This document shows, one piece after another, positions 26,643 to 63,282 of a DNA stretch of 64,000 bases. The stretch lies in the IMG/VR virus record IMGVR_UViG_3300036861_000507, positions 29,969 to 93,968 of that record; one strand, 5' to 3'. Position 1 is the first letter of the stretch. Every line of letters starts with the position of its first letter. The stretch is from a virus. A program made the position numbers and the translations under genes. Under the pieces are notes generated by a model. The model searched no databases, had not been told where the DNA came from, and saw only the letters and a list, made by a program, of their open reading frames with translations.

Positions 26643-27344
26643 ATGACCATCTCGACCTCGACGATCGCTCGACCGAAGGGTCACTCCGCCGTCATGGCGG
26701 GGCGTGTCGAGCCGCCCAGCAGCTTGGACTTTTTCCCGACCCCGCCGTGGGCGACGCGCGCGCTCTGCGAGTGCGTGCTGACCGAGTCCGATTGGCATGG
26801 CCGCAGCGTGTGGGAGCCGGCCGCCGGCGAAGGGCACATGGCCGACGTGCTGCTGGAGTATTTCGCATTTGTCCTCGCGTCCGACGTGCACGACTACGGC
26901 CGTGGTCATGCGATCGGATCATTCACGGGCAGCGGCCCGGACGTGATCGAGTGGGACGGCGAGCATCGTGAGCCGGATTGGACGATTACGAACCCACCGT
27001 TCAACGCTGCAGTCGACTTTGCCGAGCGGGCGCTGCAGGAAGCAACGCATGGGGTCGCGCTGCTGTTGCGCTCGGCCTGGATCGAGGGAGCGGAGCGCTA
27101 CAACCGACTGTTCTCCCGGTGTCCTCCGAGCGTCGTCGCGTTCTTCGTCGAGCGCGTGCCGATGGTCAAAGGCCGCTGGGACCCAAATGCATCGACGGCA
27201 ACGTCCTACGCGTGGTTCGTTTGGCGCATCACCGAAGGCTCACAGCCGACGCAGATGATTTGGATACCGCCGGGCCAGCGCAAAGCCCTGGAGCATCCCG
27301 ACGATCGCCGTCGCTTCGGACCGCAAGAGGTTGCCGTGTCATGA
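26643..27344 (+). CDS. DNA adenine/N4-cytosine methyltransferase
   Basis: FFPTPPWAT, WEPAAGEG, ITNPPF. Confidence 0.88.
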   Translation: MTISTSTIARPKGHSAVMAGRVEPPSSLDFFPTPPWATRALCECVLTESDWHGRSVWEPAAGEGHMADVLLEYFAFVLASDVHDYGRGHAIGSFTGSGPDVIEWDGEHREPDWTITNPPFNAAVDFAERALQEATHGVALLLRSAWIEGAERYNRLFSRCPPSVVAFFVERVPMVKGRWDPNASTATSYAWFVWRITEGSQPTQMIWIPPGQRKALEHPDDRRRFGPQEVAVS

Positions 27345-50061: not shown

Positions 50062-53000
50062 CTACCGCATGCTGGGGAGCCGCTCGTCGGGTACAGGCTG
50101 CCGGAAATTGGGGGTTTTCGACAGATTGGGCGTCGGGCTCCTGCGCTTCTTGACGGTCTTCTCCCACTTCATGCCCAGCATGTCCTCGTCCTGGATCAGC
50201 TGCTCGACCCGATCCTTGACCTCGAGCCACTTCTCTTGGTCGTCCGCATAGTCGCCGACCTTGGCTTTGCGCCGACGCTGCATCAACTCGTCGAACACGG
50301 GCTCGGACGAGCCCTTCAATTCGTCGAGCACGGGCTGCGGATTGCGAATCTCGCGCTTCTCCCACCCCGGCCTACCGATATCGTGTAGCGCGTTCCACAC
50401 CTCGATCGCCGAGAGGCGCCCCAGGATGTCGTCGAGCTCGACCCGCTTTTGGGGTGAGAGCGGGATGGTCTCGCCCTTCTGGCCAGGCTGGGTGTTGACG
50501 AGCCGGTCCATCGCCATCTCCCGCTTCATGGCCTGGTCGATGGTGAAGATCGCTCGAGCCCGGTTCAGCGGGTGAGCCTCTTTCTCGGTGGGCTTGAAAT
50601 GCTTGTCGAGCACCGCATAGACCCGCTCCTCCGGCTTCAGCCCTGCCAGGAAGGCCTTGACGCTGTCCTCGCTGCCGGACTTCAGGACGTCGTCGTAGTC
50701 CTTGGCGGCCGCGGCATAGGGACCCTGGCCCTTGCCGGCGAGCCGCCAATACTCGCGCACCGACTCCGAACGTCTCGAGGGATCGAGCGTGAACCGGTTC
50801 ACCATGGTGCCGACGATCGGGTAGTCCGTGAGCTTGGGTGCCCGGTTGTCCTTGCCCGTGAAATAGTCCGTGTCAGTTTTGATCTCACGGCCCCAGTAGG
50901 CCAGTTCGGTCTGCAGGGCATAGTCGATCTTGTAGGGCGAGACCTCGATTCCCACGACATGCAGGGCGGTGGCCCATTCGTTGGCGAAGGCCGAGGTATA
51001 GGGTCCCCGCTGCCGCACCGCCGACAGCCCCGAGGCATAGTCCGGCACGATCGGCCGCCCGGTCCTGGGATCGACGCCGGTTCTGAGTGCGGCCTGCAGG
51101 TTCAGTGCCTGCGGAATCACCGGCGGGGTATGGCTGGCGAGGAAGCCGTCACGCAGCTTCTCCCACACGCGCGGATCGCCCTTGGCGAGCAGATCGAACG
51201 CAGCTTCGGTGGCAATGGCCGGATAGCCGAACTCGAAGCGCTTCAGCCGGTACCAGGTGTCCCCGGCCTTGAACACCCAGTGGTTGTACTTGGTCTGGTC
51301 GTCGGTGGTGCGGATGTCGTCATACTCGGGATCGTCCTTGTAGAGCATGGCGAGCGCGGCACCCGCGACACCGATCAGAGAGAGCCAGATCCACATGCGC
51401 ATGCCATCGCGGATCGCCTTCTGGTCGCGCTGCGACATGGTCTCCTTCATGGCCTGCTCGGCGCTGGCCCTGCGTGTAAGCGCGTAGCGCAGGTAGACCT
51501 TGAGCTTCTCCATGTCGGCGGCGCCGTAGAGCGTCCAGCCCACCCCCGCGCCGGCGGCGGCGCCCAATGCGGCCCCGACCGGGCCCGCCGGCATACCCAT
51601 CGCCGCGCCAGCGAACATGGTCCCCGCCGCACCCAAGAGTCCGCCCTGCACCGCGGGGATGGTGATGGCGCGGCCTCGTTCGCCCTCGATCATCCAGGCC
51701 TGTCGGTGCGCCTTGCCGACGCCCTGGATGTTGCCGTTGAAGAAGCTCACCGCGCGCAGCACCGCGCCCATCTGGAAACCGCGGCGGTCGAACGGCAAGG
51801 TATCGTTGGCCGTGAACACGCCCTCGCGGATCGCGTCGATCTCCGACATCGAGGGATCGAAGGCCTTGGCGCGCTTGGTCGCCCATTCCGCGACACCGCG
51901 CCGGCCGAACGTCTCCGACAACTCCGAGAACTTGGCAAACGCCGCCATGGAATTCTGGCCGAACAGCATGCGGGCCATCATGGCGCCGACCGAGACGCCG
52001 AGGGTGGCCCCGACGATTGCGCCGGTCGTCGCCGCGCCCGCGACGGCACCAGCAGCGGCGCCTGGCAGCCCCGCAGCCCGATAGCCCAGCACGCCGCCGA
52101 CCACGGCACCGGGCACGGCGAGGACGGCGCCAGCCCCCGCGCCCACCGCCGCGCCGACCGCGCCACCCGCCACTGCCGTCCCGAGCCCGGCCATGGCCCG
52201 GATATCGAACACCTGGTAACCCTTGTTGCGCAGCGCGGTGAGGTCGACGCCCTGACGGCGGCCCCGGGCGTGCTGAATGTCGGCCGTGATCTGGCCGCCG
52301 GCGATCAGCCCGACGCGGTCCTGCATCTGCGCCACGTCGGAGGGCGTGATGCCGAGCTTGGTCAGGCCAGTGCGAAATGCCGGGTAGCTCGACAGCTCGT
52401 GCCAGGCACCCCTGAGGTGCGTGTAGACCGGCGGGGCTCCGGTCAGCACGAGGGTATTCTGCATGTCGCCGATGATGTTGGCCATGATGTAGGCCGGGTG
52501 CATGACGACGCCGGCGCGCAGCACTTCCGCAGGGAACGCCACGACCCTGGTCAGGATGTCAGACATGGGCCGGCCGATCTCGTTCATGGCGGCCAGCAGG
52601 CGCGCGCCGTTCAAGGCGTCGTTGAAGCGGATAAGCTTCCGCTCGCCGTTCTCCCAGAACGGCATGATGATGCCGCGCTTGGGGCCGAGATGCTGGGGAT
52701 TGTAGATCAGCTGCACCTCGGCGTCGGAGAGGTGCGCCTCCATCTCCCGCACCAGCACTGCGGCATCCTGCGGGTCCATGCCCATCCCCACCGCATAGCG
52801 GGTGAGCTTGGCGAAGGTGCGCTCGTCGGCCGGCAGTGTCTCCTCGACCTCGATGCGCTCGACGATCTTGGCGGCCCCCGGCACCCGATCGGACAGGATG
52901 GCAAAGGCGCGCGCCACCTCGTTCCTCTGGATCGCCTCGGCCGTCGCGTAAGCACGCATCGCCATGGTCTCGAGCGCGCCGATGATGTTGCGGTCCGAGC

Positions 53001-56000
53001 CGACGAACGGCTTGGCCTTCTGGAAGCTCCTTTGTGCCGCCGGCGCTGCCTGGATACCCTGCAGCACCGCAGGAACGTCGGAGAAGTCACGCTGATTGGG
53101 AACGTAGTAGTTCTTGTGTCGCGACAGGTTGCGGTACTCCTCGTCGCTCCACAGCCCGGCCTGCCATTCCAGCGTGAGCAGCCGATGCTGCCAGTCGCGG
53201 GCCATCACCGAAGCGCCGCGCGCGCGCGGATTGGTCGTCTCGATCATCTCGATGGCGTGCCAGTATTCCTGGAACGCCTTTCGGTAGGGACGGCGTCCGC
53301 CTTCACGCGGCCCCTCGGCGATGATGGCGGCGATCTCCGGGGAGCCGCGGTAATAGTCGATGACCTGGACCGTGATCGCCGGATCCTGCAGGTTGCGCGC
53401 CCACTCGACGATGGCGCGCTGGGCCTCTAGGTAGCCCTGGAAGGTTGCCACCTTTGTCTCGGTCCAATCGAACCGTGCGCGGCCGCCCAGGAACTCGACC
53501 ATGGCGCCATGCAGGGTGGGACCTTTGGCCTCCAGATCACCGTAGCTTGTCACGCCGTTGACGATCAACTGGTGACCGACTTTGAAGGACTGCGGCAGCA
53601 TCCTCTGATGGTAATGGGGGTCCTCGGTGATGCGCAGCGAGATCGGCCGGCCCTCGGCGTCGCGCGCACCGCTGGCGTCGAGCTGGCGCAGCAGAGCCTG
53701 CTTGAGCTTGAGGCTCGGGTTGGTCATGTCGGCCAGGTTGAACGAGGCACTGGAAAGCCACTGGTCCACGACCTCGGCCTGGTTGTCGGTCTTGAAGAAG
53801 GCCTTGATCTTGTCCCAGGCCGTCGGAGGGCGCAGGGTGGCCACATCGGCGACGAGGCGCTCCACCGCCGTCGCCTTCTGGTAGTCCTGGTAGTCCTTGC
53901 TCAAGGTGGTGAGCTGGACCCGATCGAGCCCGTCGAGGATGTCGGGGCGCTCGGCATCCAACAGTTCGTTGAAGGCCTGGTAGAAACCGGGCGCTCCGAC
54001 CTGCGCCTTCTCTGGGGCCAGCACGTAGTCCCGGAAGAACTCGGCGAAGCCCTCGCTGAGCCAGCCCTCGTCCTCTTCGGAGGTGACCGAGGCCACCTGG
54101 CCCGCATAGGGCGACAGCTCCTCGGCATGGGTGGCGATCAGGTCCCGCAACGGCTCCCCGATCACGTGCTCCAGGTGGTGCCCGCCCTCGTGTGCGATGG
54201 CGTCGATGTCGGTCGACAGCCGGATCCTGGCAACTCCGCCGGGGGTCTGGTACTGGCCGGCGACGTTGGCCTGGGGTGAGAGCCGGCGGGAATACCCCGT
54301 CGCGGGGTTCCTGACCGTGATGCCGCCAAGGCCCTGCGTCACCGGCATCTGCAGGGCGCGCTTCAGGTCGGCGATGATGGCGGTGAGCGAGCGGGGCGAT
54401 GCTCCCAGCCCCTGGGCTCTCGGGTCATAGCCGGGGCCGATCTCGTCGCGGCGGAAGGAGGGCTCGAGTCTACCCTCGTTGCCGTTGCCATCGTTGGAGG
54501 CCTTGAAGGCGGCCATCAACACCGAGGAGCCTTCGCTCGCGGGGTCGAAGGATGCGTTGACGGAGCGAATATTGGAAGGGTCGAAGACGACAACCTCGTC
54601 GGACCCGTCGGGGTACCGGGCGATGACGCCGTCGTGGCCCGATGCCTGCAGCTGCTCCGTCAGCTGCGCTCCGTCATCCTCGCGAGCGGCCCGCTGCAAT
54701 TCCCTGATCTGCTGCGCGGACTGGTCATTCCACATGAAGGGGTTCTCGAGGCGCACGTACACTTCGCGCACATGCCCGCGCAGGAGACCGCCCTTGTAGG
54801 ACCTAGCGAGGCTGGAATCGCTGGTCAGGTAGATGCCGCGCCCATATTGGTTGACGCCCGTGCTCTCGGTGGCCCGGTCGAGGTCGAACGCATCGAACCG
54901 GCGTTGCTCGGGGGTGCCGTGGTAGTAGACCTTGCTGGCATCGAACCCCATCGCCTCCGCCCTTGCCTTCCTGGCTTGAGGCGACATGTCGAGGTCGGGG
55001 GAGGACTTGAAGGCCGCCATCAACTGCGAGCTGGCCTCCTGGGCCGGGTCGAAGGTGGCGTCAACCGAACGGATATTGGCGGGGTCGAAGACGACCAACT
55101 CGTCGGGATAAACGTGTCGACCCTGCTCATCGGTATCGACCGGGACAGCGTCTCGGTTGCCACGCAGGACGACGCTGGCGAAGCCTTCAGCCTTCAACTT
55201 CTCCAGGTCCTTGATGACGGTCGCTGGGTAATTGTACGTCGTCGCCAATATCTCGGCTTGTCGCCCGCGCACATAAACCGGCACGACCCTGCCAAGCCCC
55301 TCCCGACCGGTCTGAATGGCCCTCGCGTTGGCGTAGCCAGATGCCGTTTCACGATGCGAAGAAAAGAACACACCTTGAGCGCTCAGCGAATGGCGTCGAT
55401 CGCTACGACTGCCATCGAAGGCTGAAAAATATCTGCCCGTCCCGTGAAACCATACCCTACTCGTATCGAACCCCATCGCCTCGGCTCTGGCCTTGCGGGC
55501 ATCAGGCGACATGTCGAGGTTGGGAGAGGGCTTGAAGGCGGCCATCTCCGGGCCGGAGCCAACCCGCTCTCCGCCACGCTTCTGCGCATCGACCAGCTTG
55601 CGGTGGATGTTGATGATGTCTTCGACGTGGTTCTTCGACAGGCCGACGCTTGCGGCCGTGTTGATCAGAACATTGGCGATGTTCTGCACCGACGGGTCGA
55701 CTGCCGCCATGGCGATGGTCGCCGCATCGAAGAAAGCTTTGATCTCCGGCATCCTCATCAAGACGAGAGGATTGCGCCGCCCGCGCTCGATCTTGAAGTG
55801 GCGCGCGATGGCCTCTTCCCACACTTTGATCGGGCTGGCCCATCCCCGTTCCGGGAACTGAGAGATGGCCGCCATCTCTGGGCTCTCACCGAACGTCGGC
55901 TCGATCCGCTCTCCCCCTTCAGGCGTGCGCACGTTCTCCCCGAAGGCCTGCTCCAGCACGGCGTCGGCCGTCCTGAATCCCAGCCCGTTCAGCGCATTCC

Positions 56001-59000
56001 TGACCGCCTCGAAGAACTTGGCGATGCGCTCCAGCAATCTGTCGATGGCGGTGCCGTAGGAGGCCTTGCCGGCCACGAAGTCCTCGACCATGTGGGAGAC
56101 CATCTCCTGGTCGAGCATCTCCTTCAGGATCGCCTCTTTGACGGAGGCCGAGGCATCCGGATAGTGCTCCTCCACCGATTGCCGGTAGGTATCGCGGTAG
56201 AACTCGCGCCGGCCTTCCCGCCCCCCGAGCTTCTCGCCCTGCCCCAGCTTCTGGGCGCGGTCGGTCAGTAGCTTCCACTCCGGGTCGGACCACAGCCCCA
56301 TGCCCCGAAGCACATGGGCGGCCTCGTGCGCGCCGGTGCTCAGGGCTTCCGCGAACGTCCGGTCCCCCAGCGCGATGTTGATGATCCACGGGTCGGTATG
56401 GGCCCGACGCGGGCTGACCGAGCCCACCATCTCCGCGCCCGAGGCATGGAACAGCCGGTCCGCCATGCGGATGGCGACATCCTCGGGCAGCATCCTGCGC
56501 AGTTGCGCTTCGAGCGCCGGGGCGAACTCGGGCAGGGCTTGCTTGAAGACGTCGGCGTAAGGGTGGTCGGCGAAGGCGGCTAGGCCTTGCGGGCCGCCGC
56601 CTGGTCCTTCGCCTTCTTCTTTAGCGCTTCCACCTCGGTTGGTGTCAGCTTCGGTCCGCTGCTCAGCGCCTGATCGATCCAGCCCTCGTTGCGCTCCTCC
56701 CACTCCTCCAGCGAGCCGGGTGCGAACTTGCTCTTCGACGGCGTCGGCGAGGCCTGCAAAAGCTGCAGTTGCCTCGCGGACAACCCAGTGTTCTTCGTCG
56801 TCAGTCGGGGATACGCGCGCGTGCTCATAGACGGCCTCCTCGGAGACGGCGTTAGCATAGGCCTCGCTCGGGTTCAAGTCGTCGAAACGGTCCAAGGGCA
56901 CCGCCCGTCCGCTGCGGCGCCACCTGTCCACAGCCCGCTCCATGGCGATGGCTTTGGGCGTGTCGATGAAGATCAGGGTGGGCGCGTAGCCCTTCGACCA
57001 GAGCCACGCGGCGCGATCGGCGACCTTGGGCCATGATCCCAGCGTCTCGACGACAACGTTGTCGCCCGTGGCGATCAACTGGTCCGTCGTCAGCTTGGCA
57101 AGCTTGCTGCTCTCCTCGTGCACGCCCTCGCCGTTCTTGCCCCCATCGTATTCGGGGATGATGTCCTTGGGGATGTCCGACACCATGTGCGCGGCGCGGA
57201 ACTGTACCGACAGTGCGCGCGCGATGGTGCTTTTGCCGGCGCCGGGGTATCCGATGATGAGGTAGGCTTGCTTCTCGCGGGCGACGCCGCCAGGAACCTT
57301 CTGCTCGGCCTGGTCGGCAAGGTACCGCACCGCGTCGGCAACGCCCTTGATCTCCCTGCCATCCGCGGCCGCGTAGCGGCGCTCCCTGATCCACGTTGGG
57401 TCGCGCATGTAGCCGGGCTGGTTGTAGGTATAGAGCGAGGGGTCGGCCGGCTTCTCACCGGCGGCCTTCCACGCCGGACTCTCCATCACCCCCCGTGCCG
57501 CGGCTTCCCGTTCCTCCAGAGACCTCTGGGACCGTGGGCTGGCGAAGCTAAAAAGCGGTTGGCCTTCACCATAGCGCTCTATGAACGATTGGCGCACCCA
57601 TCGCTGTTCATCAGGCGGCAGTTCTGAATACGGTTTTCCGAACAGCTTCTGCGCGTGGGCTTCAAAAAGCTGCGGACCTTCAACGCCTGCGTTGGCTTTG
57701 ATTTCCTCTCCCAGCTTCCTGATGGCATCGTCAGCAAGCTCGTAGAGGCGAACTCGTTTTGCTATATCCTTGCCCTTCGCGATGAGACGGACATGCCCTT
57801 TCAGGGCGTGGTACGCGAGGATGGCGGAAGCAGCAGCGATGGCGCCGCCCGGAGCGGAACCCTGAGTTGCGGCGTAGAGACCGCCAGCACCGCCCGTTAT
57901 GCCAAGAGCACCTTCAATGTCGAGATCGCCCATGCCATGGTTGCGGCGCGCGCGGATTTCTAGTCTTAGATGATCCAAGGCAGCCTTGCCCCACAGACGT
58001 ATCTCATCCGCAAATGATGGCGGGGTCTCAGCGAGCGTCTTCTTCACAAAGTCGCGAATGATGCCTGTCGCTAGCCCCTCGTCACCTACCCTATAGGCGT
58101 CCTCTGCGGTCGAGCGAATTGCATTGGGCGCATTGGAAACTGCGCGCTTGAAGCCAGCGAAGCTAAAAAGCGGCATCCCCTGGGACAGCACGGAGGCCTT
58201 GACCTTGTCGGTCAGGGGGAAGGTGTGGAAGAGGATGGGCGGCGTTCCCTTGCGCTCTGGGCCAACCGAGCCGGGGCCGCCCGCTGTTTCCCAGCCGGTG
58301 ACCTTCTCGCGGTCGCTCGTGAAGACGCGACCGTCCATCGAAGACTTGAGCGGTTTCTCCTCCCCCTTGACGGACGGGTCCATCTTGGAGAGCAGCTTGG
58401 AGAGCATGCGGGGGTACATCTGGTCGTAGGCGTAGAGCATCCCGTGGCCGCCGATTTGCACTTGGCCAAGGTCGCTAAGCGTGTGCCACTCGCCCTGGCT
58501 TGCCTTGTCGTAAGCCGGTGTTTTGGCGAGCAACGCCTCCGTCATCTCTTTGCCGATGACGCTCGGCAAATCGCCCGGCTTGAACTCACGGCGCCCGCTG
58601 TTGTCCGTGAAGGTCTGCCATTGATTGCGGAATCTGTCGGTGGTGGGCGCGTACTCGAGGATACCCGTCTTGGGATTGTAACGCAGACCCGAGGCGACCT
58701 GGCTCAACTGCGGGTAGCGATCGACGCTGGTATTGCCGGGAGAGATGGCAATTGACTCCGCCCCCGCCTCTACGGCTTGCCGTATCAATCTACGGAAGGC
58801 AGTTGTCGTCCACTGGTCGGTGGTGTTGACGAGGGGATGGCCGGGGGTGGCGGCTGTTGCTGTGCGATGCTCAGCATCGAGTAGATTGAGGCTACGGCGT
58901 GCGTTGCCGAGCGCTTCGGCATCCTCTTTGCGGCCGCTTGCCCGCAATTGCTTTTCGAGTTGCTCGCCAGTCGTTGATCGGCCCATACCCCTAGCATTGG

Positions 59001-62000
59001 CGCCGTAGAGAGAGGTGGCGGCTTGATCCGCAAGGACGTTGTACTGATCGCGCGCCTCGTTCAGACGCGTCGCAAGCTCCGCAATCTTCGCCTCGTCCCG
59101 CGCTCCCCCATCCCTGAGCTTCTGAGCACCAGATGCTTGCAGTTCATCGACAAGGAACACGGGCTTGCCTGCCGCATCCTTCTGTAGCGACGTTCTTGAG
59201 TGGAAGAGGTAGCCGGGGATTTCAGAGTAGTGTCCCTCCTGGTAGCCGCCAATGCCGCCATCCCACTGACTGACGATGGCCCGCAAGCGATCAAGCTCAG
59301 ACTGCATGTCTGAGCGGTAGGGCTGCTCTTTCAGAGCTGCAAGCTGTGCGCGAGCATCGGATACGGTCTCTGGCTCACCAAGCGAGACGACCTGTTCGCG
59401 GTTTGTCGGGTTGCGTGGATCGACCGTCCAGTTCGTGTATTTAGCGTGGCGACGTGCGGGGCCGTTCGCGATCTGCGCCGCCCGCAGTCGCTCCATCAGA
59501 CCGCGCTGCTCATCGGATAGGTCAGGGGTGGGCGCGGTCTCGCCGTCCCGCACCTCTTCCATCATCGCGCGCGCTTCGCTTGGGCGCAGATGCGGATAGT
59601 CGTTGGCTAGGAATGCGAGATATTTCTGCTCAGCCGCCACAAGCGCCGTGAATTCGGGACCGCCGTAGACGCTCTCCCTCAGCTCCACCCTGTGCTCTTC
59701 CAGGAAGGAGACGATGTCGGACTTGGTGATGCTCTTCTTGCCCTCCAGGAACGTGTCCAGCTTGGTGGCGGCAAGCTCCGCCTCCTTGACGCCCGTGCCC
59801 TTGGTGAGCATCGAGCGCATCTGCTCCGGCGTGCCCTTCTCCTGCTTCAGGGCTTTGGCGGCTTCCAGGGCTTGGGAGTAGAAGCCGAGGGAGTCGAAGG
59901 CGCGGCGCTGATCCTGGCCCTGCTCCGCAAACGCGGCCATCTCCACGCTGTCGGCATATTTGGCAAGATCATCGTGGCGCTTCTGGATCGAAGCGAGCGC
60001 CGCTTCCTTGGTGGTCTTCGCGGTGGGCCGCCGGCCGACCAGATGGGCAAGCTCCAGCACCTCGGCCTTGCTCAGCCGACCCGCGCGTCCGGTCTGCGCC
60101 CGTCCCGAGGCGGCCTCGGTCAGTGCCGCCATCTCCCGCTCGAATGCGGGAGTGCCGCGTGCCGTCTCGATGGTTTCCGCCCAGTTGCGGACCGTTTCGG
60201 AGACGGGCTTGCCGGTCTCGGCCTCCCTGATCCGCACCGCGCTGGCGATGCGCACATCGGGCGGGATGGCCTGCGTCTCGGCGAGCGGCCGCGTCCGCGA
60301 TTCGCGCGGCGCGACGCGCACCAGCTTGGTGCGACGCACGTTCGGCACGCTGGCCTTGAGATGGGCGTCGGCCTCCGGTGACAGGACCGGAGTGGGAGCA
60401 CCTTCGCCCATGGCGCGCGTGTAGGTGTTGAGCTCGCTCGCCACTTCAGGCGATGGCGCGGTGCGGATGGCCTTGACGAGGTCGGGTGCCCCGTACCTCT
60501 GCAGCAACCCGGCCTCGACCGCCTCGTCGACCAGGGTGCCGAGCTTGGCCTCGTCGACATTGAGCATGCGGGCCCAGGACGATTTCGGCGACTTGCCCGC
60601 CAGCAGGGACCGGAACCTCTGTCTTAGGGCGCGCTCGTGCTCGCGCTCGGCGGGGCCTGGCTGCCGCGCTTGCTGAGCAGCACGTTGAGATGGGCCTGGC
60701 GGTTGAGCGCGGCCGCCCGCTCCGGGTCGGGCTCTTGTTGCGCCCACTCCTGCAGCTGCTGGGCCATTTGCCCGTGCACCTCCGGGGACGCCAGCGGCTT
60801 GACCGGCTGGCGCGGCTGCGGTGCGGCCGCCTGGCTGGGTTCCGGACTCGCCTCGCCCTTCACCGGCTCCGGTTGGGGTTTCGGCTTGGGCTTCCTCGCG
60901 GCCGGCCCTTTCCGCTTCGAACCTTTCGACGGCATAGCGCTCCAGCGCCTCCTCTGCGGCGAGCCCCTGGGCCATGTGGAAGGCGACGGATCGGACGTCC
61001 TCGTCGCCCAGGTCCCAGGCCACGCCCTGCTCGTTATACACGGCCTCGATGTCGGCGCCATAGCCGGCGAGGTTCTGGTCCACGTCGCGCTCGAGAGCGG
61101 AGCGCTGTTCATCCGTGAGCGGCTTGGCGATGCTGGCCAGTTGCGTGGCCAGCTCGCGCTGCCAGGCCGGAGCCGCCTTGGTCAGCTCCGCCGCCGGGAC
61201 GCCGGTGTTGGACCCCTCGACGGTGGCCCACCGTCCGTCGGGCGAAAGCCACGTGACCTTGCGCGGCTCGGTGAATTGGTCGGTTCCGCCCGAGGTCCAC
61301 TGCACCTCGTCGCCGACGGCCACCGATGGCGGGGCCGCCTCTTGACCGGCAACGCGATCAACGGCCTCGGCCCCGCCGACGGGCTTGATGTCGCCCAGAC
61401 CGCGGCCGAGCACCGGCTTGCGCACCATGGCGGCCATGCGCATGCCGTCCGGCTCTTGGTCGGCCGCCGCAGTCGCTGCCGGAACGATGACCGCACCAGC
61501 CGTTCCCGCAGGCTGGCCCTCTCCTGAACCGGCTTTCTCTTTCCCTTCCGCAGCCTGATGCACCGCCTCGGTGCCGGGGAAGAATTCCGGCTGCGCGAAG
61601 GCTGGGGCCTGCTGTTGCGCGGGCGCGGTTTCCGTTGGCGCCGCGCCCGGCTCTACATCGGACCGAACGCCTCCCGCGCGCACCTTGGCCTCGCGCACCG
61701 GCGTCGCGGCAGGCGCCCCTTCGGCTTCCTGCCCGCGCATCTTGCGGTAGACGTCGGCAATCGCCTGGCTCTTGGCGCCCAGCAGTCCGCCGATCAGCGC
61801 GCCATCCCAGGCGCTATCGTCCCACCGGCGCTTGTCGTCGTAGAAGTGGCGGGCCGTGACGTTCTCGGCCACCGACTGGGCGAACTCCTGCCCGCCTTCC
61901 TCGTAGGCCTGGGCGAAGATGCGCTTGATCCATGCGCCCTTCTGACCGTGGAACAGGTGGGCGATCGGCGCCGCTTCCGTGGCGCCGATCGGCAGGGCGA

Positions 62001-63282
62001 GCAGGGTGGCGGCAAAGATGTCGTCCTCGTCGACAGCCACGCCATCGACGGTCTTGCCGGCCTTGAAGGCCTTCAGCGCATCGTCGCCCATGGCGCCGGC
62101 CTGGCTCATGGCACCGGCGCCGCCAGCGGTCACCCCGACATTGACATAGGGGTTGGCGATCAGATTGGGGATCAGGCTCAGGCCGGCCCGCTGCATCCCG
62201 AAGCGCGCGACATTGAGCGCTGCCGCCGGCCCCATAAAGCCGATCATGGAGCCCAGGCCCTCGCCGAACTGCGCCTTGAACTCGTTGGCCCTGGCCTCAT
62301 CCTTGGGGAAGGCGGCATCGGCCCAGTCCGACACGTCCTTGCCGACCTTGTAGAGCGCGCGCTCCTGCACTGTGCCCATCGGTGTGGTGTCGAGCTTTAC
62401 CGGGCTTTGGTCATCGGGGGCGTAGAAGTCGTAGCCCTTGATGCTCTCCACCGCGGCGCCAGCGTAGGCGACGCCCTTCAGCACGTTGGCCACCACGCCG
62501 TCGACGATGCCGTGGCCGGTGGTGTCGGCGATCAGGCGGCCTGTACCAGTCCTGGGCCCTTCCTTGAGGCCCATCTCCATCAGGTCGGCGGCCTCGCGGC
62601 GCTGGCGATGGAAGGCGATCTGCTCGTTGACCTTGCGCTGCAGCCAGGTCGACTCGCCAGCCGGCTGGCGTCCTTCCGCCTCCAGATTCCGGGCCGACGG
62701 GTCGGCAAGGTTGTCCTTGGCCCACGTCCACCAGCCCGCGGCCTTGGTGGTGTAGTCCTTCTCGCCCTTGATCCAGTCGGCGCGGCCTTTGTCGTCGAGG
62801 TTGTCCCAATCGCCAAACAGGGCGCGCGAGGACGTGCGCTGGGCACCCTCCTCCTCCAGCTGCCGCTCCACGGCCTGGCGGTTGCCGAGGTCGTCGAAGA
62901 CGCCGCGGTCCTGCAGTTCCTTGGCCAGCGGGCTGGTCCCGACTTCCTCCTGCTGCGCAGGCTCGCGCGCGCGCCGCTCCCACGGCGGGGTCTCGTCCTC
63001 AGGCTCTGCCGTCTTGGCCGCAATCCTCGTGAACCCCGCATCGCCCTCATCGAGGTCTTCGATCAGTTCCGGCGCATAGACCGGCATGCGCCTGTCGATG
63101 TCGGGCTCGGGTGCAGGGCGCATGATGCCCTTGTCGTCGCCGCCAGCCGTGTTGAGCAGCGTCTCCTCGTAGCTCTGGGTAGGCAGGTACGCTCTGCCGC
63201 TCAGATCTTCGGGATCGTCCGGGTTGTCGAGCACCGTGCGGTCCGGCCACCACGGCTTGGCTGCTTTCGGGAGGGTTGCCAT
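50062..63282 (-). CDS. Giant (4406 aa) polyvalent virion/ejection protein
   Basis: Zeta-toxin-like P-loop (GYPGAGKS), two ART-like domains (HGT..F/Y..E.VVFDP.NIRS), two HExxH motifs, glycine zippers, LPD38-like C-terminal region. Confidence 0.85.
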   Translation of the reverse strand: MATLPKAAKPWWPDRTVLDNPDDPEDLSGRAYLPTQSYEETLLNTAGGDDKGIMRPAPEPDIDRRMPVYAPELIEDLDEGDAGFTRIAAKTAEPEDETPPWERRAREPAQQEEVGTSPLAKELQDRGVFDDLGNRQAVERQLEEEGAQRTSSRALFGDWDNLDDKGRADWIKGEKDYTTKAAGWWTWAKDNLADPSARNLEAEGRQPAGESTWLQRKVNEQIAFHRQRREAADLMEMGLKEGPRTGTGRLIADTTGHGIVDGVVANVLKGVAYAGAAVESIKGYDFYAPDDQSPVKLDTTPMGTVQERALYKVGKDVSDWADAAFPKDEARANEFKAQFGEGLGSMIGFMGPAAALNVARFGMQRAGLSLIPNLIANPYVNVGVTAGGAGAMSQAGAMGDDALKAFKAGKTVDGVAVDEDDIFAATLLALPIGATEAAPIAHLFHGQKGAWIKRIFAQAYEEGGQEFAQSVAENVTARHFYDDKRRWDDSAWDGALIGGLLGAKSQAIADVYRKMRGQEAEGAPAATPVREAKVRAGGVRSDVEPGAAPTETAPAQQQAPAFAQPEFFPGTEAVHQAAEGKEKAGSGEGQPAGTAGAVIVPAATAAADQEPDGMRMAAMVRKPVLGRGLGDIKPVGGAEAVDRVAGQEAAPPSVAVGDEVQWTSGGTDQFTEPRKVTWLSPDGRWATVEGSNTGVPAAELTKAAPAWQRELATQLASIAKPLTDEQRSALERDVDQNLAGYGADIEAVYNEQGVAWDLGDEDVRSVAFHMAQGLAAEEALERYAVERFEAERAGREEAQAETPTGAGEGRGESGTQPGGRTAAAPAGQAAGVPGGARANGPAAAGVGATRARPGAGGRAQPPGPSQRAAQQARQPGPAEREHERALRQRFRSLLAGKSPKSSWARMLNVDEAKLGTLVDEAVEAGLLQRYGAPDLVKAIRTAPSPEVASELNTYTRAMGEGAPTPVLSPEADAHLKASVPNVRRTKLVRVAPRESRTRPLAETQAIPPDVRIASAVRIREAETGKPVSETVRNWAETIETARGTPAFEREMAALTEAASGRAQTGRAGRLSKAEVLELAHLVGRRPTAKTTKEAALASIQKRHDDLAKYADSVEMAAFAEQGQDQRRAFDSLGFYSQALEAAKALKQEKGTPEQMRSMLTKGTGVKEAELAATKLDTFLEGKKSITKSDIVSFLEEHRVELRESVYGGPEFTALVAAEQKYLAFLANDYPHLRPSEARAMMEEVRDGETAPTPDLSDEQRGLMERLRAAQIANGPARRHAKYTNWTVDPRNPTNREQVVSLGEPETVSDARAQLAALKEQPYRSDMQSELDRLRAIVSQWDGGIGGYQEGHYSEIPGYLFHSRTSLQKDAAGKPVFLVDELQASGAQKLRDGGARDEAKIAELATRLNEARDQYNVLADQAATSLYGANARGMGRSTTGEQLEKQLRASGRKEDAEALGNARRSLNLLDAEHRTATAATPGHPLVNTTDQWTTTAFRRLIRQAVEAGAESIAISPGNTSVDRYPQLSQVASGLRYNPKTGILEYAPTTDRFRNQWQTFTDNSGRREFKPGDLPSVIGKEMTEALLAKTPAYDKASQGEWHTLSDLGQVQIGGHGMLYAYDQMYPRMLSKLLSKMDPSVKGEEKPLKSSMDGRVFTSDREKVTGWETAGGPGSVGPERKGTPPILFHTFPLTDKVKASVLSQGMPLFSFAGFKRAVSNAPNAIRSTAEDAYRVGDEGLATGIIRDFVKKTLAETPPSFADEIRLWGKAALDHLRLEIRARRNHGMGDLDIEGALGITGGAGGLYAATQGSAPGGAIAAASAILAYHALKGHVRLIAKGKDIAKRVRLYELADDAIRKLGEEIKANAGVEGPQLFEAHAQKLFGKPYSELPPDEQRWVRQSFIERYGEGQPLFSFASPRSQRSLEEREAAARGVMESPAWKAAGEKPADPSLYTYNQPGYMRDPTWIRERRYAAADGREIKGVADAVRYLADQAEQKVPGGVAREKQAYLIIGYPGAGKSTIARALSVQFRAAHMVSDIPKDIIPEYDGGKNGEGVHEESSKLAKLTTDQLIATGDNVVVETLGSWPKVADRAAWLWSKGYAPTLIFIDTPKAIAMERAVDRWRRSGRAVPLDRFDDLNPSEAYANAVSEEAVYEHARVSPTDDEEHWVVREATAAFAGLADAVEEQVRTRLAGGVGGAQRGLDRSGAEQRTEADTNRGGSAKEEGEGPGGGPQGLAAFADHPYADVFKQALPEFAPALEAQLRRMLPEDVAIRMADRLFHASGAEMVGSVSPRRAHTDPWIINIALGDRTFAEALSTGAHEAAHVLRGMGLWSDPEWKLLTDRAQKLGQGEKLGGREGRREFYRDTYRQSVEEHYPDASASVKEAILKEMLDQEMVSHMVEDFVAGKASYGTAIDRLLERIAKFFEAVRNALNGLGFRTADAVLEQAFGENVRTPEGGERIEPTFGESPEMAAISQFPERGWASPIKVWEEAIARHFKIERGRRNPLVLMRMPEIKAFFDAATIAMAAVDPSVQNIANVLINTAASVGLSKNHVEDIINIHRKLVDAQKRGGERVGSGPEMAAFKPSPNLDMSPDARKARAEAMGFDTSRVWFHGTGRYFSAFDGSRSDRRHSLSAQGVFFSSHRETASGYANARAIQTGREGLGRVVPVYVRGRQAEILATTYNYPATVIKDLEKLKAEGFASVVLRGNRDAVPVDTDEQGRHVYPDELVVFDPANIRSVDATFDPAQEASSQLMAAFKSSPDLDMSPQARKARAEAMGFDASKVYYHGTPEQRRFDAFDLDRATESTGVNQYGRGIYLTSDSSLARSYKGGLLRGHVREVYVRLENPFMWNDQSAQQIRELQRAAREDDGAQLTEQLQASGHDGVIARYPDGSDEVVVFDPSNIRSVNASFDPASEGSSVLMAAFKASNDGNGNEGRLEPSFRRDEIGPGYDPRAQGLGASPRSLTAIIADLKRALQMPVTQGLGGITVRNPATGYSRRLSPQANVAGQYQTPGGVARIRLSTDIDAIAHEGGHHLEHVIGEPLRDLIATHAEELSPYAGQVASVTSEEDEGWLSEGFAEFFRDYVLAPEKAQVGAPGFYQAFNELLDAERPDILDGLDRVQLTTLSKDYQDYQKATAVERLVADVATLRPPTAWDKIKAFFKTDNQAEVVDQWLSSASFNLADMTNPSLKLKQALLRQLDASGARDAEGRPISLRITEDPHYHQRMLPQSFKVGHQLIVNGVTSYGDLEAKGPTLHGAMVEFLGGRARFDWTETKVATFQGYLEAQRAIVEWARNLQDPAITVQVIDYYRGSPEIAAIIAEGPREGGRRPYRKAFQEYWHAIEMIETTNPRARGASVMARDWQHRLLTLEWQAGLWSDEEYRNLSRHKNYYVPNQRDFSDVPAVLQGIQAAPAAQRSFQKAKPFVGSDRNIIGALETMAMRAYATAEAIQRNEVARAFAILSDRVPGAAKIVERIEVEETLPADERTFAKLTRYAVGMGMDPQDAAVLVREMEAHLSDAEVQLIYNPQHLGPKRGIIMPFWENGERKLIRFNDALNGARLLAAMNEIGRPMSDILTRVVAFPAEVLRAGVVMHPAYIMANIIGDMQNTLVLTGAPPVYTHLRGAWHELSSYPAFRTGLTKLGITPSDVAQMQDRVGLIAGGQITADIQHARGRRQGVDLTALRNKGYQVFDIRAMAGLGTAVAGGAVGAAVGAGAGAVLAVPGAVVGGVLGYRAAGLPGAAAGAVAGAATTGAIVGATLGVSVGAMMARMLFGQNSMAAFAKFSELSETFGRRGVAEWATKRAKAFDPSMSEIDAIREGVFTANDTLPFDRRGFQMGAVLRAVSFFNGNIQGVGKAHRQAWMIEGERGRAITIPAVQGGLLGAAGTMFAGAAMGMPAGPVGAALGAAAGAGVGWTLYGAADMEKLKVYLRYALTRRASAEQAMKETMSQRDQKAIRDGMRMWIWLSLIGVAGAALAMLYKDDPEYDDIRTTDDQTKYNHWVFKAGDTWYRLKRFEFGYPAIATEAAFDLLAKGDPRVWEKLRDGFLASHTPPVIPQALNLQAALRTGVDPRTGRPIVPDYASGLSAVRQRGPYTSAFANEWATALHVVGIEVSPYKIDYALQTELAYWGREIKTDTDYFTGKDNRAPKLTDYPIVGTMVNRFTLDPSRRSESVREYWRLAGKGQGPYAAAAKDYDDVLKSGSEDSVKAFLAGLKPEERVYAVLDKHFKPTEKEAHPLNRARAIFTIDQAMKREMAMDRLVNTQPGQKGETIPLSPQKRVELDDILGRLSAIEVWNALHDIGRPGWEKREIRNPQPVLDELKGSSEPVFDELMQRRRKAKVGDYADDQEKWLEVKDRVEQLIQDEDMLGMKWEKTVKKRRSPTPNLSKTPNFRQPVPDERLPSMR
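56580..56828 (-). CDS. Nested same-strand ORF after zeta-like domain
   Basis: GAGGAGG 6 nt before ATG; 82-aa protein-like product. Confidence 0.55.
   Translation of the reverse strand: MSTRAYPRLTTKNTGLSARQLQLLQASPTPSKSKFAPGSLEEWEERNEGWIDQALSSGPKLTPTEVEALKKKAKDQAAARKA
60624..60935 (-). CDS. Nested same-strand ORF in giant-gene linker
   Basis: GGAG upstream; helical MAQQLQEWAQQEPDPERAAALNRQAHL. Confidence 0.45.
   Translation of the reverse strand: MPSKGSKRKGPAARKPKPKPQPEPVKGEASPEPSQAAAPQPRQPVKPLASPEVHGQMAQQLQEWAQQEPDPERAAALNRQAHLNVLLSKRGSQAPPSASTSAP

Follow-up and report, generated by a model that had tools for sequence, protein, structure and literature searches.

A candidate antitoxin gene overprinted in the +1 frame on the zeta-toxin module of a giant phage polyvalent-protein gene

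In the toxin systems that have been studied, every zeta kinase has a protein neutralizer (PMC10532202). In the epsilon/zeta and PezA/PezT systems, a zeta-family P-loop kinase is bound and neutralized by a small helical protein (PMC10532202), and in EzeT of Escherichia coli, as relayed in two later articles, a cis-acting antitoxin domain is fused to the zeta toxin (Rocker and Meinhart 2015, via PMC10532202 and PMC4826407). The gonococcal ng_epsilon1/ng_zeta1 system comprises a zeta kinase and an antitoxin of unrelated fold (PMC5923241, PMC10532202). Zeta-like kinases are also among the domains catalogued in the polyvalent proteins (Iyer et al. 2017, PMC5512222). The founding paper on these proteins described no immunity partner for such domains, and the words overlapping, frameshift and linker do not occur in it (PMC5512222). 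Polyvalent proteins bring toxin-type enzymes into the next host, and how the producing cell survives has not been addressed so far. In the open-access full text searched, no earlier description came up of an immunity or antitoxin gene encoded within a toxin gene in an alternative frame.

The locus analyzed here lies in a window of 64,000 nucleotides (the term denotes the whole stretch of DNA that was analyzed), whose source is a virus record, and it is part of a single very large gene with the following features.

50062 to 63282, minus strand: the giant polyvalent-protein gene of 4406 aa, host of the nested open reading frame (ORF) (from the ORF list and translation).
56737 to 57420, minus strand: the zeta-toxin-like kinase module, aa 1955-2182 (Pfam PF06414), which served as chain 1 of the complex prediction.
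57226 to 57252, minus strand: the Walker A motif or P-loop, G-Y-P-G-A-G-K-S-T, aa 2011-2019 (direct reading of the sequence).

The 4406-aa protein contains the Pfam domains Zeta_toxin, ART-PolyVal (twice) and LPD38, that is, several effector and family-specific domains in one phage polypeptide, as is typical of polyvalent proteins, and its homologues are 21 multi-domain proteins of 2771-6987 aa with comparably mixed architectures. The DNA was identical in two soil-metagenome assemblies, with 0 differences and 0 gaps, and the sequence of the nested-ORF region is therefore real. The Pfam core of the zeta module spans aa 2002-2155 (window positions 56818-57279, E 2.1e-18), with a PF06414 score of 66.9 bits vs a curated cut-off of 22.3, and the modules of two homologues, P0003 and P0004, are 57-63% identical to it. 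The Walker A motif conforms to GxxGxGK[ST] and is invariant across six homologues, with G2011, P2013, G2014, G2016, K2017, S2018 and T2019 unchanged in the zeta alignment (A1). The module also contains S-D-I-P-K-D (aa 2035-2040) and G-R-A-V-P, matched by eye only to D67 (the catalytic Asp after the P-loop) and R158 (the Arg of the G-R-x-V-P lid) of zeta, and R2126 and P2129 are invariant. A PDB sequence search with the module aligned no solved zeta relative, and tblastn of the zeta region against phage and plasmid records returned distant zeta toxins only.

An earlier, sequence-only reading of this DNA had proposed that a candidate immunity gene is nested in the giant gene right after the zeta-like domain. 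The features that bear on this proposal are as follows.

56580 to 56828, minus strand: the nested +1-frame ORF, 82 aa from ATG 56828, with its stop TAG at 56582-56580.
56835 to 56841, minus strand: the Shine-Dalgarno (SD)-like sequence GAGGAGG, 6 nt upstream of the nested ATG 56828.
56584 to 56736, minus strand: the main-frame G/R/E-rich linker, aa 2183-2233 (51 aa with 14 G, 7 E and 6 R).
56572 to 56586, minus strand: the G-L-A-A-F junction motif, in which the CTA Leu codon contributes to the nested TAG.

All sequence statements of that reading were confirmed. The ORF list and its translation contain the ORF at 56828-56580, which is in the +1 frame relative to the giant gene, begins where the zeta domain ends, and extends to 92 aa if the alternative start ATG 56858 is used; it is a complete ORF with its own start signals, on the same strand as the surrounding gene but in another frame, as expected of an embedded out-of-frame gene. 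The SD-like sequence at 6-nt spacing was confirmed, and the nested start is the only one of the 187 ATGs of the 13-kb gene at which AGGAGG and ATG are paired, although an SD-like motif of at least 5 bases at a distance of 4-10 nt precedes 4 of the 187. Other gene starts of the same phage are also preceded by SD-like motifs. The main frame does pass into a G/R/E-rich linker, which is written with the rare A-ending codons GGA, CGA, GAA and CAA. The nested stop does fall at the LAAF junction, where the rare Leu codon CTA and the G of the following codon make up the TAG within G-L-A-A-F, and the same type of junction is found in homologues as ELAAF or TLFSF. The nested product is small and basic (pI about 9.8). 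When it was modeled alone with AF2, helices were predicted at residues 21-36, 50-66 and 73-91 with no packed fold (pLDDT 69, pTM 0.26). The ORF is missing from the protein collection of its own contig.

The length of the nested ORF is no evidence for a gene, because such openness is commonly reached: 62% of synonymous shuffles keep the nested frame open, and 12 of the 95 stop-to-stop segments in the +1 frame of the giant gene extend over at least 92 codons. The choice of codons is more informative. Main-frame GC3 drops from 0.87-0.90 to 0.52-0.55 over the nested ORF, and the GC content of main-frame position 1, which is position 3 of the nested frame, climbs to 0.85-0.87. When the main-frame protein was held fixed and codons were drawn from the giant gene's own usage, the main-frame synonymous score had a z of -7.0 (GC3 0.52 vs about 0.85) and the nested-frame score a z of +4.3, with 0 of 5000 shuffles as extreme, and over the linker alone the main-frame score had a z of -5.8 with a GC3 of 0.48. 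The run of rare main-frame codons extends from 56814, just past ATG 56828, to the CTA that forms the nested stop. A scan for such flips in codon usage, which covered the window's candidate genes (about 12,400 codons in all), detected three others, one of them inside the giant gene and two at places where a neighboring real gene occupies the other frame. Judged by its codons, the nested frame bears the signature of a translated gene, and this codon evidence is strong. That the frame is open by chance in GC-rich DNA, or was created by a compensating pair of sequencing indels, is hardly credible: +1 open frames are indeed common in the giant gene, but none of the shuffles reached the observed codon deviation. 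The pair of indels was rejected in its own right, as the two assemblies agree without an indel and the search described below did not find the peptide in frame in any long protein.

Structure modeling points to binding between the nested peptide and the neighboring zeta domain. The predicted complex of the two had an ipSAE of 0.83 (0.79, 0.88 and 0.83 in separate runs), whereas the best of three controls reached 0.01. Of 80 solved complexes, 58 attained this mark, as did 2 of 110 mismatched pairs, and these counts apply only roughly since our own alignments were used. Contacts agreed between runs to at least 87%, and the pLDDT of the partner was at least 64. That the predictor reproduced a known complex is unlikely, because PDB sequence searches gave no solved relative for either chain. 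The contacts of lowest error join nested residues 60-65 with zeta residues 2059-2070 and 2090-2096, and the P-loop is absent from the listed predicted interface.

These nested residues belong to the part of the peptide that is conserved among its relatives.

56664 to 56702, minus strand: the conserved nested core W-E-E-R-N-E-G-W-I-D-Q-A-L, nested aa 53-65 (alignment A2), the predicted principal site of contact to the zeta domain.

Among 1.84 billion protein representatives searched, six clusters of 66-96-aa ORFs had the WEERNEGWID core (41-53% identity, E 1e-9 to 2e-4). The nested peptide was found in frame in none of the long proteins. In these relatives, which reside on contigs of 1-4 kb, the small ORF was called as a gene in its own right. 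Over nested aa 47-66 the identity is 0.53, compared with 0.18 for the main frame on the same DNA, and conservation of the nested core peaks where the main-frame linker is least conserved. The identity to be expected depends on the distance of the matches. For a relative at the distance of P0004, with saturated synonymous sites, a nested identity of about 25% would be expected (at most 37% in 200 simulations), vs the 41-53% observed; if the matches are close relatives, at about 80% DNA identity, roughly 50% would be expected in any frame without selection, and minimal-change simulations permit up to 62%. When the nested matches were paired with giant homologues by dual-frame decoding, compatibility was highest for P0024 and P0004, at 48 of 70 positions, against a background of about 35-40% and with a register that is broken by indels; these two were rejected as the same DNA at this level and are related only. 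Related loci were also sought with the zeta region, alignments A1 and A3, and the homologues P0006, P0004 and P0030, with no match among viral contigs or genome contigs and a single one among metagenome contigs (L001), which is 28% identical and has a giant gene without the zeta module. For the nested peptide, neither tblastn against phage and plasmid records nor the homologous-protein search gave a match, the ESM Atlas contained sub-threshold fungal look-alikes only, Pfam had no family at E <= 0.01 and NCBIfam none of relevance, a PDB profile search matched no antitoxin, and Foldseek of the low-confidence peptide model had no match in the PDB.

The starts of the relatives bear on how the nested frame would be read. 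A Met is found about 12-14 residues upstream of the conserved G of a G-L-S motif in five of the six lineages, and the starts of the relatives cluster at a common position. Alternatively, some ribosomes might slip by +1 after the zeta core and terminate at the TAG, giving a 2200-aa N-terminal product whose helical tail would bind the kinase in cis. The frame is the +1 frame, the complex prediction has the tail bound to the domain, and an internal SD sequence, such as the one present here, can stimulate +1 shifts, as in prfB (PMC5009743). However, a Met retained at the same site in five of six lineages fits initiation and not slippage, no slippery run or shift-prone combination of codon and stop was seen by eye between 56876 and 56800, and the window for a shift would be very narrow, because a nested-frame TGA lies just 6 codons upstream of ATG 56858. 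We regard such an isoform as highly improbable.

The separately called small ORFs could also be taken to mean that the genes of the relatives are unfused, and that the nested frame here is a functionless fossil of a former separate gene, or of a C-terminal tail in the other frame, which was swallowed by a frameshift fusion. A nested stop located exactly on the module junction and a main-frame linker that resembles out-of-frame text would be consistent with such an origin. Nevertheless, the linker motifs G-x-L-D-R-x-G-A, E-G-E-G-P and L-A-A-F are common to P0004, although its zeta module is only 63% identical, which argues that any fusion is old; the A-rich third positions should therefore have drifted to the gene's GC3 of 0.82, whereas the observed GC3 of 0.52 shows no decay towards that value. 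In addition, the canonical SD sequence and the ATGs, which are formed from rare TAT codons, are still kept, and the specific binding prediction would have to be coincidental. This makes a fossil rather unlikely.

The one other flip in the codon usage of the giant gene, at 60940-60700, allows a comparison within the same protein.

60624 to 60935, minus strand: a second +1-frame ORF, 103 aa from ATG 60935 (162 aa from ATG 61112), at the codon-usage flip 60940-60700.

Here the main-frame score had a z of -5.9 and the nested score a z of +2.4, and the homologous-protein search with this ORF gave no called homologue. This second flip adjoins no recognized toxin domain, and therefore such flips might have a cause unrelated to immunity. 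The rare A-ending codons and GGAGG runs of the linker may have been selected or tolerated for ribosome pausing between domains, with no second protein made and the gene-like frame as a side effect. Both flips sit in inter-domain linkers, and main-frame text rich in G, R, A and E raises nested GC3 automatically (the simulated nested score was 0.33 at the second-flip region). However, the nested score over the ORF ending at 56580 exceeds what the main-frame protein predicts (by the z of +4.3), no flip occurs at the other junctions of the giant protein, and both the conserved nested core and the specific complex prediction are left unexplained. Pausing with no second protein is very unlikely.

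Taken together, we lean towards the nested ORF being a real overprinted gene for a zeta-binding neutralizer, and the earlier reading of a toxin with its cognate inhibitor is supported as a candidate. The same codon, signal and homologue evidence would also be obtained if the gene were real and its product bound the zeta module without inhibiting it, as a folding or packaging chaperone, an adaptor for targeting to the capsid, or a regulator of proteolysis at the junction. The lack of any P-loop residue in the predicted interface and the presence of a second nested candidate beside a domain without a toxin signature would fit such a role. On the other hand, the predicted interface spans residues near the conserved E-T-L-G, R2090 and G-R-A-V-P, where the substrate cleft would lie by analogy with zeta and PezT, and a protein neutralizer accompanies every zeta kinase that has been studied (PMC10532202). 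A non-inhibitory partner is therefore considered unlikely.

Under the neutralizer reading, a protein-coding gene of about 82 codons would share its bases, in the +1 frame, with the end of the zeta module and the linker behind it. Ribosomes would start independently at ATG 56828 by means of the AGGAGG 6 bases upstream, and would stop at the TAG within GLAAF. The product would be a mostly helical peptide, whose helix W-E-E-R-N-E-G-W-I-D-Q-A-L is predicted to dock on the zeta kinase across helices and loops near the E-T-L-G and G-R-A-V-P motifs. Its most likely role would be that of an antitoxin or immunity factor. In the phage-producing cell, the peptide may silence the kinase within the polyvalent protein that is packaged into virions. 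As this protein is processed and enters the next host by injection, the peptide may stay behind or be lost.

One contig bears on recombination at the locus.

56097 to 57496, minus strand: the block swapped as a unit, aa about 1930-2396 (zeta module, nested ORF and first half of the HExxH domain).

On a 7457-nt contig of a relative (run X4), both flanks of this block were matched, and 1403 other letters replaced the 1400, in frame. It had been suggested that toxin and inhibitor travel as one cassette without breaking the 13-kb ORF. The in-frame exchange of the zeta-plus-nested block agrees with such a cassette in an intact ORF; over the nested ORF itself, runs X3 and X4 matched short or divergent pieces only. 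A toxin module and a neutralizer that are encoded on one stretch of DNA would therefore recombine as one unit and leave the giant ORF intact.

If the neutralizer reading is true, the overprinted antidote would answer the question of producer survival for the zeta kinase, and the peptide would be a zeta-binding neutralizer unlike those described to date. The locus would, in addition, be a rare instance of same-strand dual coding in a bacterial virus with a clear functional logic, since recombination cannot separate the toxin from the antidote. It is conceivable, although doubtful at present, that the linkers of polyvalent proteins are a general hiding place of +1-frame genes, each for a private neutralizer or chaperone of the neighboring module; two stretches of this kind are present in the giant gene. 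If so, effector and antidote would be the same DNA and would be shuffled between giant proteins as indivisible cassettes, a natural sequence entanglement that would let phages fill their virions with toxins and yet spare the producing cell. Nested ORFs like this one are never reported by gene callers, and the codon-flip scan could reveal more of them in giant phage and plasmid genes.

The comparison with known systems shows how the candidate departs from each of them. As in epsilon/zeta and PezA/PezT, a Zeta_toxin domain is accompanied by a small helical peptide that is predicted to bind it. However, in those systems the antitoxin is a separate upstream gene and the toxin is a stand-alone protein, whereas here the putative antitoxin is overprinted in the other frame on the 3' end of the toxin and the linker, and the toxin is a module within a phage protein of 4406 aa. 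The nested peptide matched neither epsilon nor PezA in sequence or fold (Pfam, PDB profile and Foldseek searches), which is no objection, because ng_epsilon1/ng_zeta1 shows that zeta antitoxins can have unrelated folds; that pair, unlike the nested ORF, is a conventional plasmid two-gene operon. EzeT, as summarized in the articles cited above, is alike in that toxin and neutralizer cannot be separated, as they share a single stretch of DNA and a single mRNA, but there they form one polypeptide in one frame, whereas here two polypeptides would be made from two frames of the same bases.

The arrangement of the reading frames matches that of Rz1 of phage lambda, a small gene with its own start in the +1 frame inside Rz, and the products of the two genes act together. 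As in Rz/Rz1, a complete small candidate gene that has a start of its own lies in the +1 frame within a larger phage gene. In contrast, Rz and Rz1 act in lysis as the spanin subunits, and Rz has 153 aa, whereas the nested ORF would pair a toxin with a putative neutralizer in a 13-kb polyvalent gene. Finally, the locus resembles polymorphic-toxin and CDI cassettes, in which modular toxin domains are exchanged among large carriers and the immunity gene travels with the toxin. In those cassettes the immunity gene follows the stop of the toxin gene, whereas here it would be nested within the toxin-carrying gene itself.

The giant gene carried by this virus record, its nested ORF and a second region of similar character have the following coordinates.

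50062-63282, minus strand: giant polyvalent-protein gene, a single ORF of 4406 codons
60624-61112, minus strand: second +1-frame flip, strongest at 60940-60700, the only other codon-usage flip in the giant gene
60935-60624, minus strand: ORF under the second flip as read from ATG 60935 (103 aa; 162 aa in full), with GAGGAGG 12 nt upstream of this ATG
56876-56874, minus strand: TGA in the nested frame
56858, minus strand: first ATG of the nested frame
56828, minus strand: second ATG of the nested frame
56582-56580, minus strand: TAG, stop of the nested frame

Pfam detected in the giant protein two ART-PolyVal domains, LPD38 and, at aa 2002-2155, a Zeta_toxin domain (E 2.1e-18). By this content it is a polyvalent protein as Iyer et al. 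2017 (PMC5512222) use the term, and zeta-like kinases are among the domains that they list. Metagenomic multi-domain homologues numbered 21, with sizes of 2771-6987 aa, and the related polyvalent proteins P0005, P0007 and P0008 have two zeta modules apiece (aa 1052-1246 and 3875-4105 in P0005). Three stretches of the giant gene, aa 1261-1491, 1691-1901 and 2571-2651 (about 59500-58810, 58210-57580 and 55570-55330), have weak codon bias and a lower GC of 0.585-0.62, with no other frame gaining codon score; this suggests modules from another genomic background and a mosaic gene.

The sequence-only reading had placed a candidate immunity gene in an alternative frame behind the zeta domain, and this ORF is real, being open in the +1 frame from ATG 56828 through its TAG. 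As had been described, GAGGAGG stands 6 bases ahead of the ATG, the main frame turns into a G/R/E-rich linker, and the stop falls in the G-L-A-A-F junction. The linker has 51 aa and spans the second half of the ORF, and the stop is built from the rare Leu codon CTA. Of the giant gene's 187 ATG triplets, 4 are preceded by an SD-like motif of at least 5 bases at 4-10 nt, and AGGAGG is found at only one of these four, ATG 56828; SD-like motifs also lie ahead of other likely gene starts in the phage. Both nested ATGs derive from TAT, the less used of the two Tyr codons in the giant gene (35 TAT vs 82 TAC). Logan contigs from two soil-metagenome runs span the region 56000-57600 and match it without any difference or gap, which indicates reproducibility rather than full independence, since the source sample could be one of the two. 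Paired compensating indel errors are argued against by this exact match together with the lack, among 1.84 billion representative proteins searched with HMMER, of any long protein carrying the nested peptide in frame.

The length of the open frame is not beyond chance, because 12 of 95 +1-frame segments of the giant gene are at least as long and the frame stayed open in 62% of synonymous main-frame shuffles. The codon pattern is a different case. Main-frame GC3 is 0.87-0.90 in the zeta core, 0.52-0.55 at about 56829-56560 and 0.88-0.92 beyond, and over the same interval main position 1 (position 3 of the nested frame) climbs to 0.85-0.87. With a score restricted to synonymous choice, from which the effect of amino-acid composition is removed, only two parts of the 13-kb gene combined a strongly negative main frame with a gene-level +1 frame, aa 2151-2200 (the nested ORF) and aa 790-850. 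When the main-frame protein was held constant and codons were redrawn according to the giant gene's own usage (n=5000), the nested-ORF region gave z = -7.0 for the main frame and z = +4.3 for the nested frame, with 0 of 5000 shuffles equally extreme, and we give chance or artefact hardly any weight. Rare main-frame codons (GTA, ACT, GAA, GTT, GCA, GCT, TTT, GGA, CGA, CAA, CTA) start at 56814, just past the second ATG, and the run closes at the CTA forming the nested stop; from about 56736 on, preferred codons are nearly exclusive in the nested frame. Such a run of rare codons might instead pause the ribosome with no second protein being made, which we consider improbable.

A control scan over the window's candidate genes (about 12,400 codons) flagged only the two giant-gene stretches and two overlaps with neighbouring real genes. 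The latter, at 27002-27092 (plus strand) and about 5317 (minus strand), are 5' extensions of stop-to-stop ORFs entering the neighbouring gene's frame, and they are positive controls for the scan, not findings. Since the only other flagged places hold real neighbouring genes, the flip acts as a marker of real coding in this genome. At the second flip the main-frame synonymous score was z = -5.9 and the nested score z = +2.4, and its ORF ends in a TAA formed out of the Leu codon CTA, at the point where the main frame becomes conserved again. The main frame there is a G/A/R/P-rich linker common to 6 of 6 aligned homologues, and a protein homologue search found no called homologue of the ORF. The second flip may mean that nested genes recur in these linkers, or that some other force shapes them.

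A 7457-nt contig from a fourth soil run (X4) matches 56000-56096 and 57497-57565 near-perfectly, and in between 1403 unrelated or diverged letters replace the window's 1400 (56097-57496), with break points within homologue-invariant stretches at aa about 1929 and about 2396. The contig thus has either a swapped block, still in frame, or a deeply diverged allele; read as a swap, it would make a single in-frame exchange unit of the zeta module, the nested ORF and the first half of the HExxH domain that follows, which fits the earlier idea of a travelling cassette.

A full HMMER pass with the 92-aa nested product as query gave six matches, all ORFs of 66-96 aa (E 1e-9 to 2e-4, 41-53% identity), on contigs from ENA and JGI that are 1-25 kb long. 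The window's own nested ORF is absent from the protein collection, as expected because gene callers forbid nested genes. The relatives have in common, in order, G-L-S-x-R-Q-L-x-L-L, P-G-S-L-x-E-W-E-E-R-N-E-G-W-I-D-x-A-L and P-x-E-x-x-A-L-K-x-K-A-K, and 5 of 6 lineages have a Met some 12-14 residues ahead of the conserved Gly, at the place of ATG 56828. This conserved Met, the TGA close upstream and the absence, by eye, of a slippery site disfavour a +1 frameshift isoform, which we regard as very improbable. One short relative, P0026 (96 aa, on a 1020-nt ENA contig), has a twin-arginine-like leader (S-R-R-E-V-L, then an Ala-rich stretch), a T-E-G-W-I-D-Q core and a K-Q-K-A-K tail; it may represent an exported variant of the nested peptide that stands alone, or just out-of-frame GC-rich text.

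Identity was 0.53 across nested relatives in the nested core (aa 47-66), 0.18 across giant homologues for main-frame aa 2188-2207, encoded by the same DNA, and 0.56 in the zeta core directly upstream, an apparent opposition between the two frames that is suggestive only, because nested relatives and giant homologues are different sets. In simulations at a distance like that of the giant homologue P0004, saturated synonymous sites left about 25% nested identity (maximum 37%), and zero synonymous change left up to 62%; the 41-53% observed requires either that the nested frame is under selection or that the relatives are closer than their decoded residues indicate. The linker motifs G-R-L-D-R-P-G-A, E-G-E-G-P and E-L-A-A-F are common to the window and P0004, so the fusion of frames is old. 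The ORF could be an inert fossil of an old gene fusion; codon choice that still runs against the bias and an SD that has been kept fit a fossil poorly, and we judge it unlikely.

The nested peptide is basic and hydrophilic, and alone it was predicted to form three helical segments (21-36, 50-66 and 73-91) without a packed fold (pLDDT 69, pTM 0.26). Co-folded with the zeta module (aa 1955-2182), it gave an ipSAE of 0.83 (runs 0.79, 0.88 and 0.83), with contact agreement of at least 87% and partner pLDDT of at least 64, and the best of 3 controls gave 0.01. Of 80 solved complexes 58 reached the ipSAE mark, as did 2 of 110 mismatched pairs; these counts are rough, as own alignments were used. The most confident predicted contacts join nested W60-L65, the peptide's most conserved residues, to zeta 2059-2070 and 2090-2096; more lie near V-E-T-L-G-S, P-L-D-R-F-D-D-L and S-D-I-P-K-D, flanking family-invariant residues. 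By analogy with zeta and PezT, the contacted residues are probably situated on the cleft's substrate side. By sequence, no solved relative exists for either chain, and therefore recall of a known complex by the model is unlikely. The model supports, and does not demonstrate, binding of the peptide to the zeta module.

We lean, at slightly better than even confidence, toward an overprinted gene whose product would bind the zeta kinase and silence it in the cell that makes the phage. This 9-kDa product would be translated from the late mRNA that also encodes the giant protein, and free kinase would become active only once processed and injected into the next host, where weakening of the wall has been suggested (Iyer et al., PMC5512222). 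A real nested binder with a different role, such as a chaperone or adaptor, seems rather unlikely to us.

The proposed inhibitor recalls epsilon/zeta and PezAT, in which a small helical protein blocks the zeta kinase (PMC10532202). However, it is not a member of the epsilon/PezA family, to which searches against Pfam and the PDB, by profile and with Foldseek, found no similarity, and its gene position is different; a gonococcal system shows that the folds of zeta antitoxins can be unrelated (PMC5923241). In a search of the open-access full-text literature, no description turned up of an antidote that is overprinted on its toxin, or of an immunity partner for any polyvalent-protein domain. The nearest case of an inseparable toxin and antidote is EzeT, in which the pair is fused in one frame. 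In lambda Rz/Rz1 one gene is embedded in the +1 frame of the other, and this is the nearest architectural precedent for the nested ORF.
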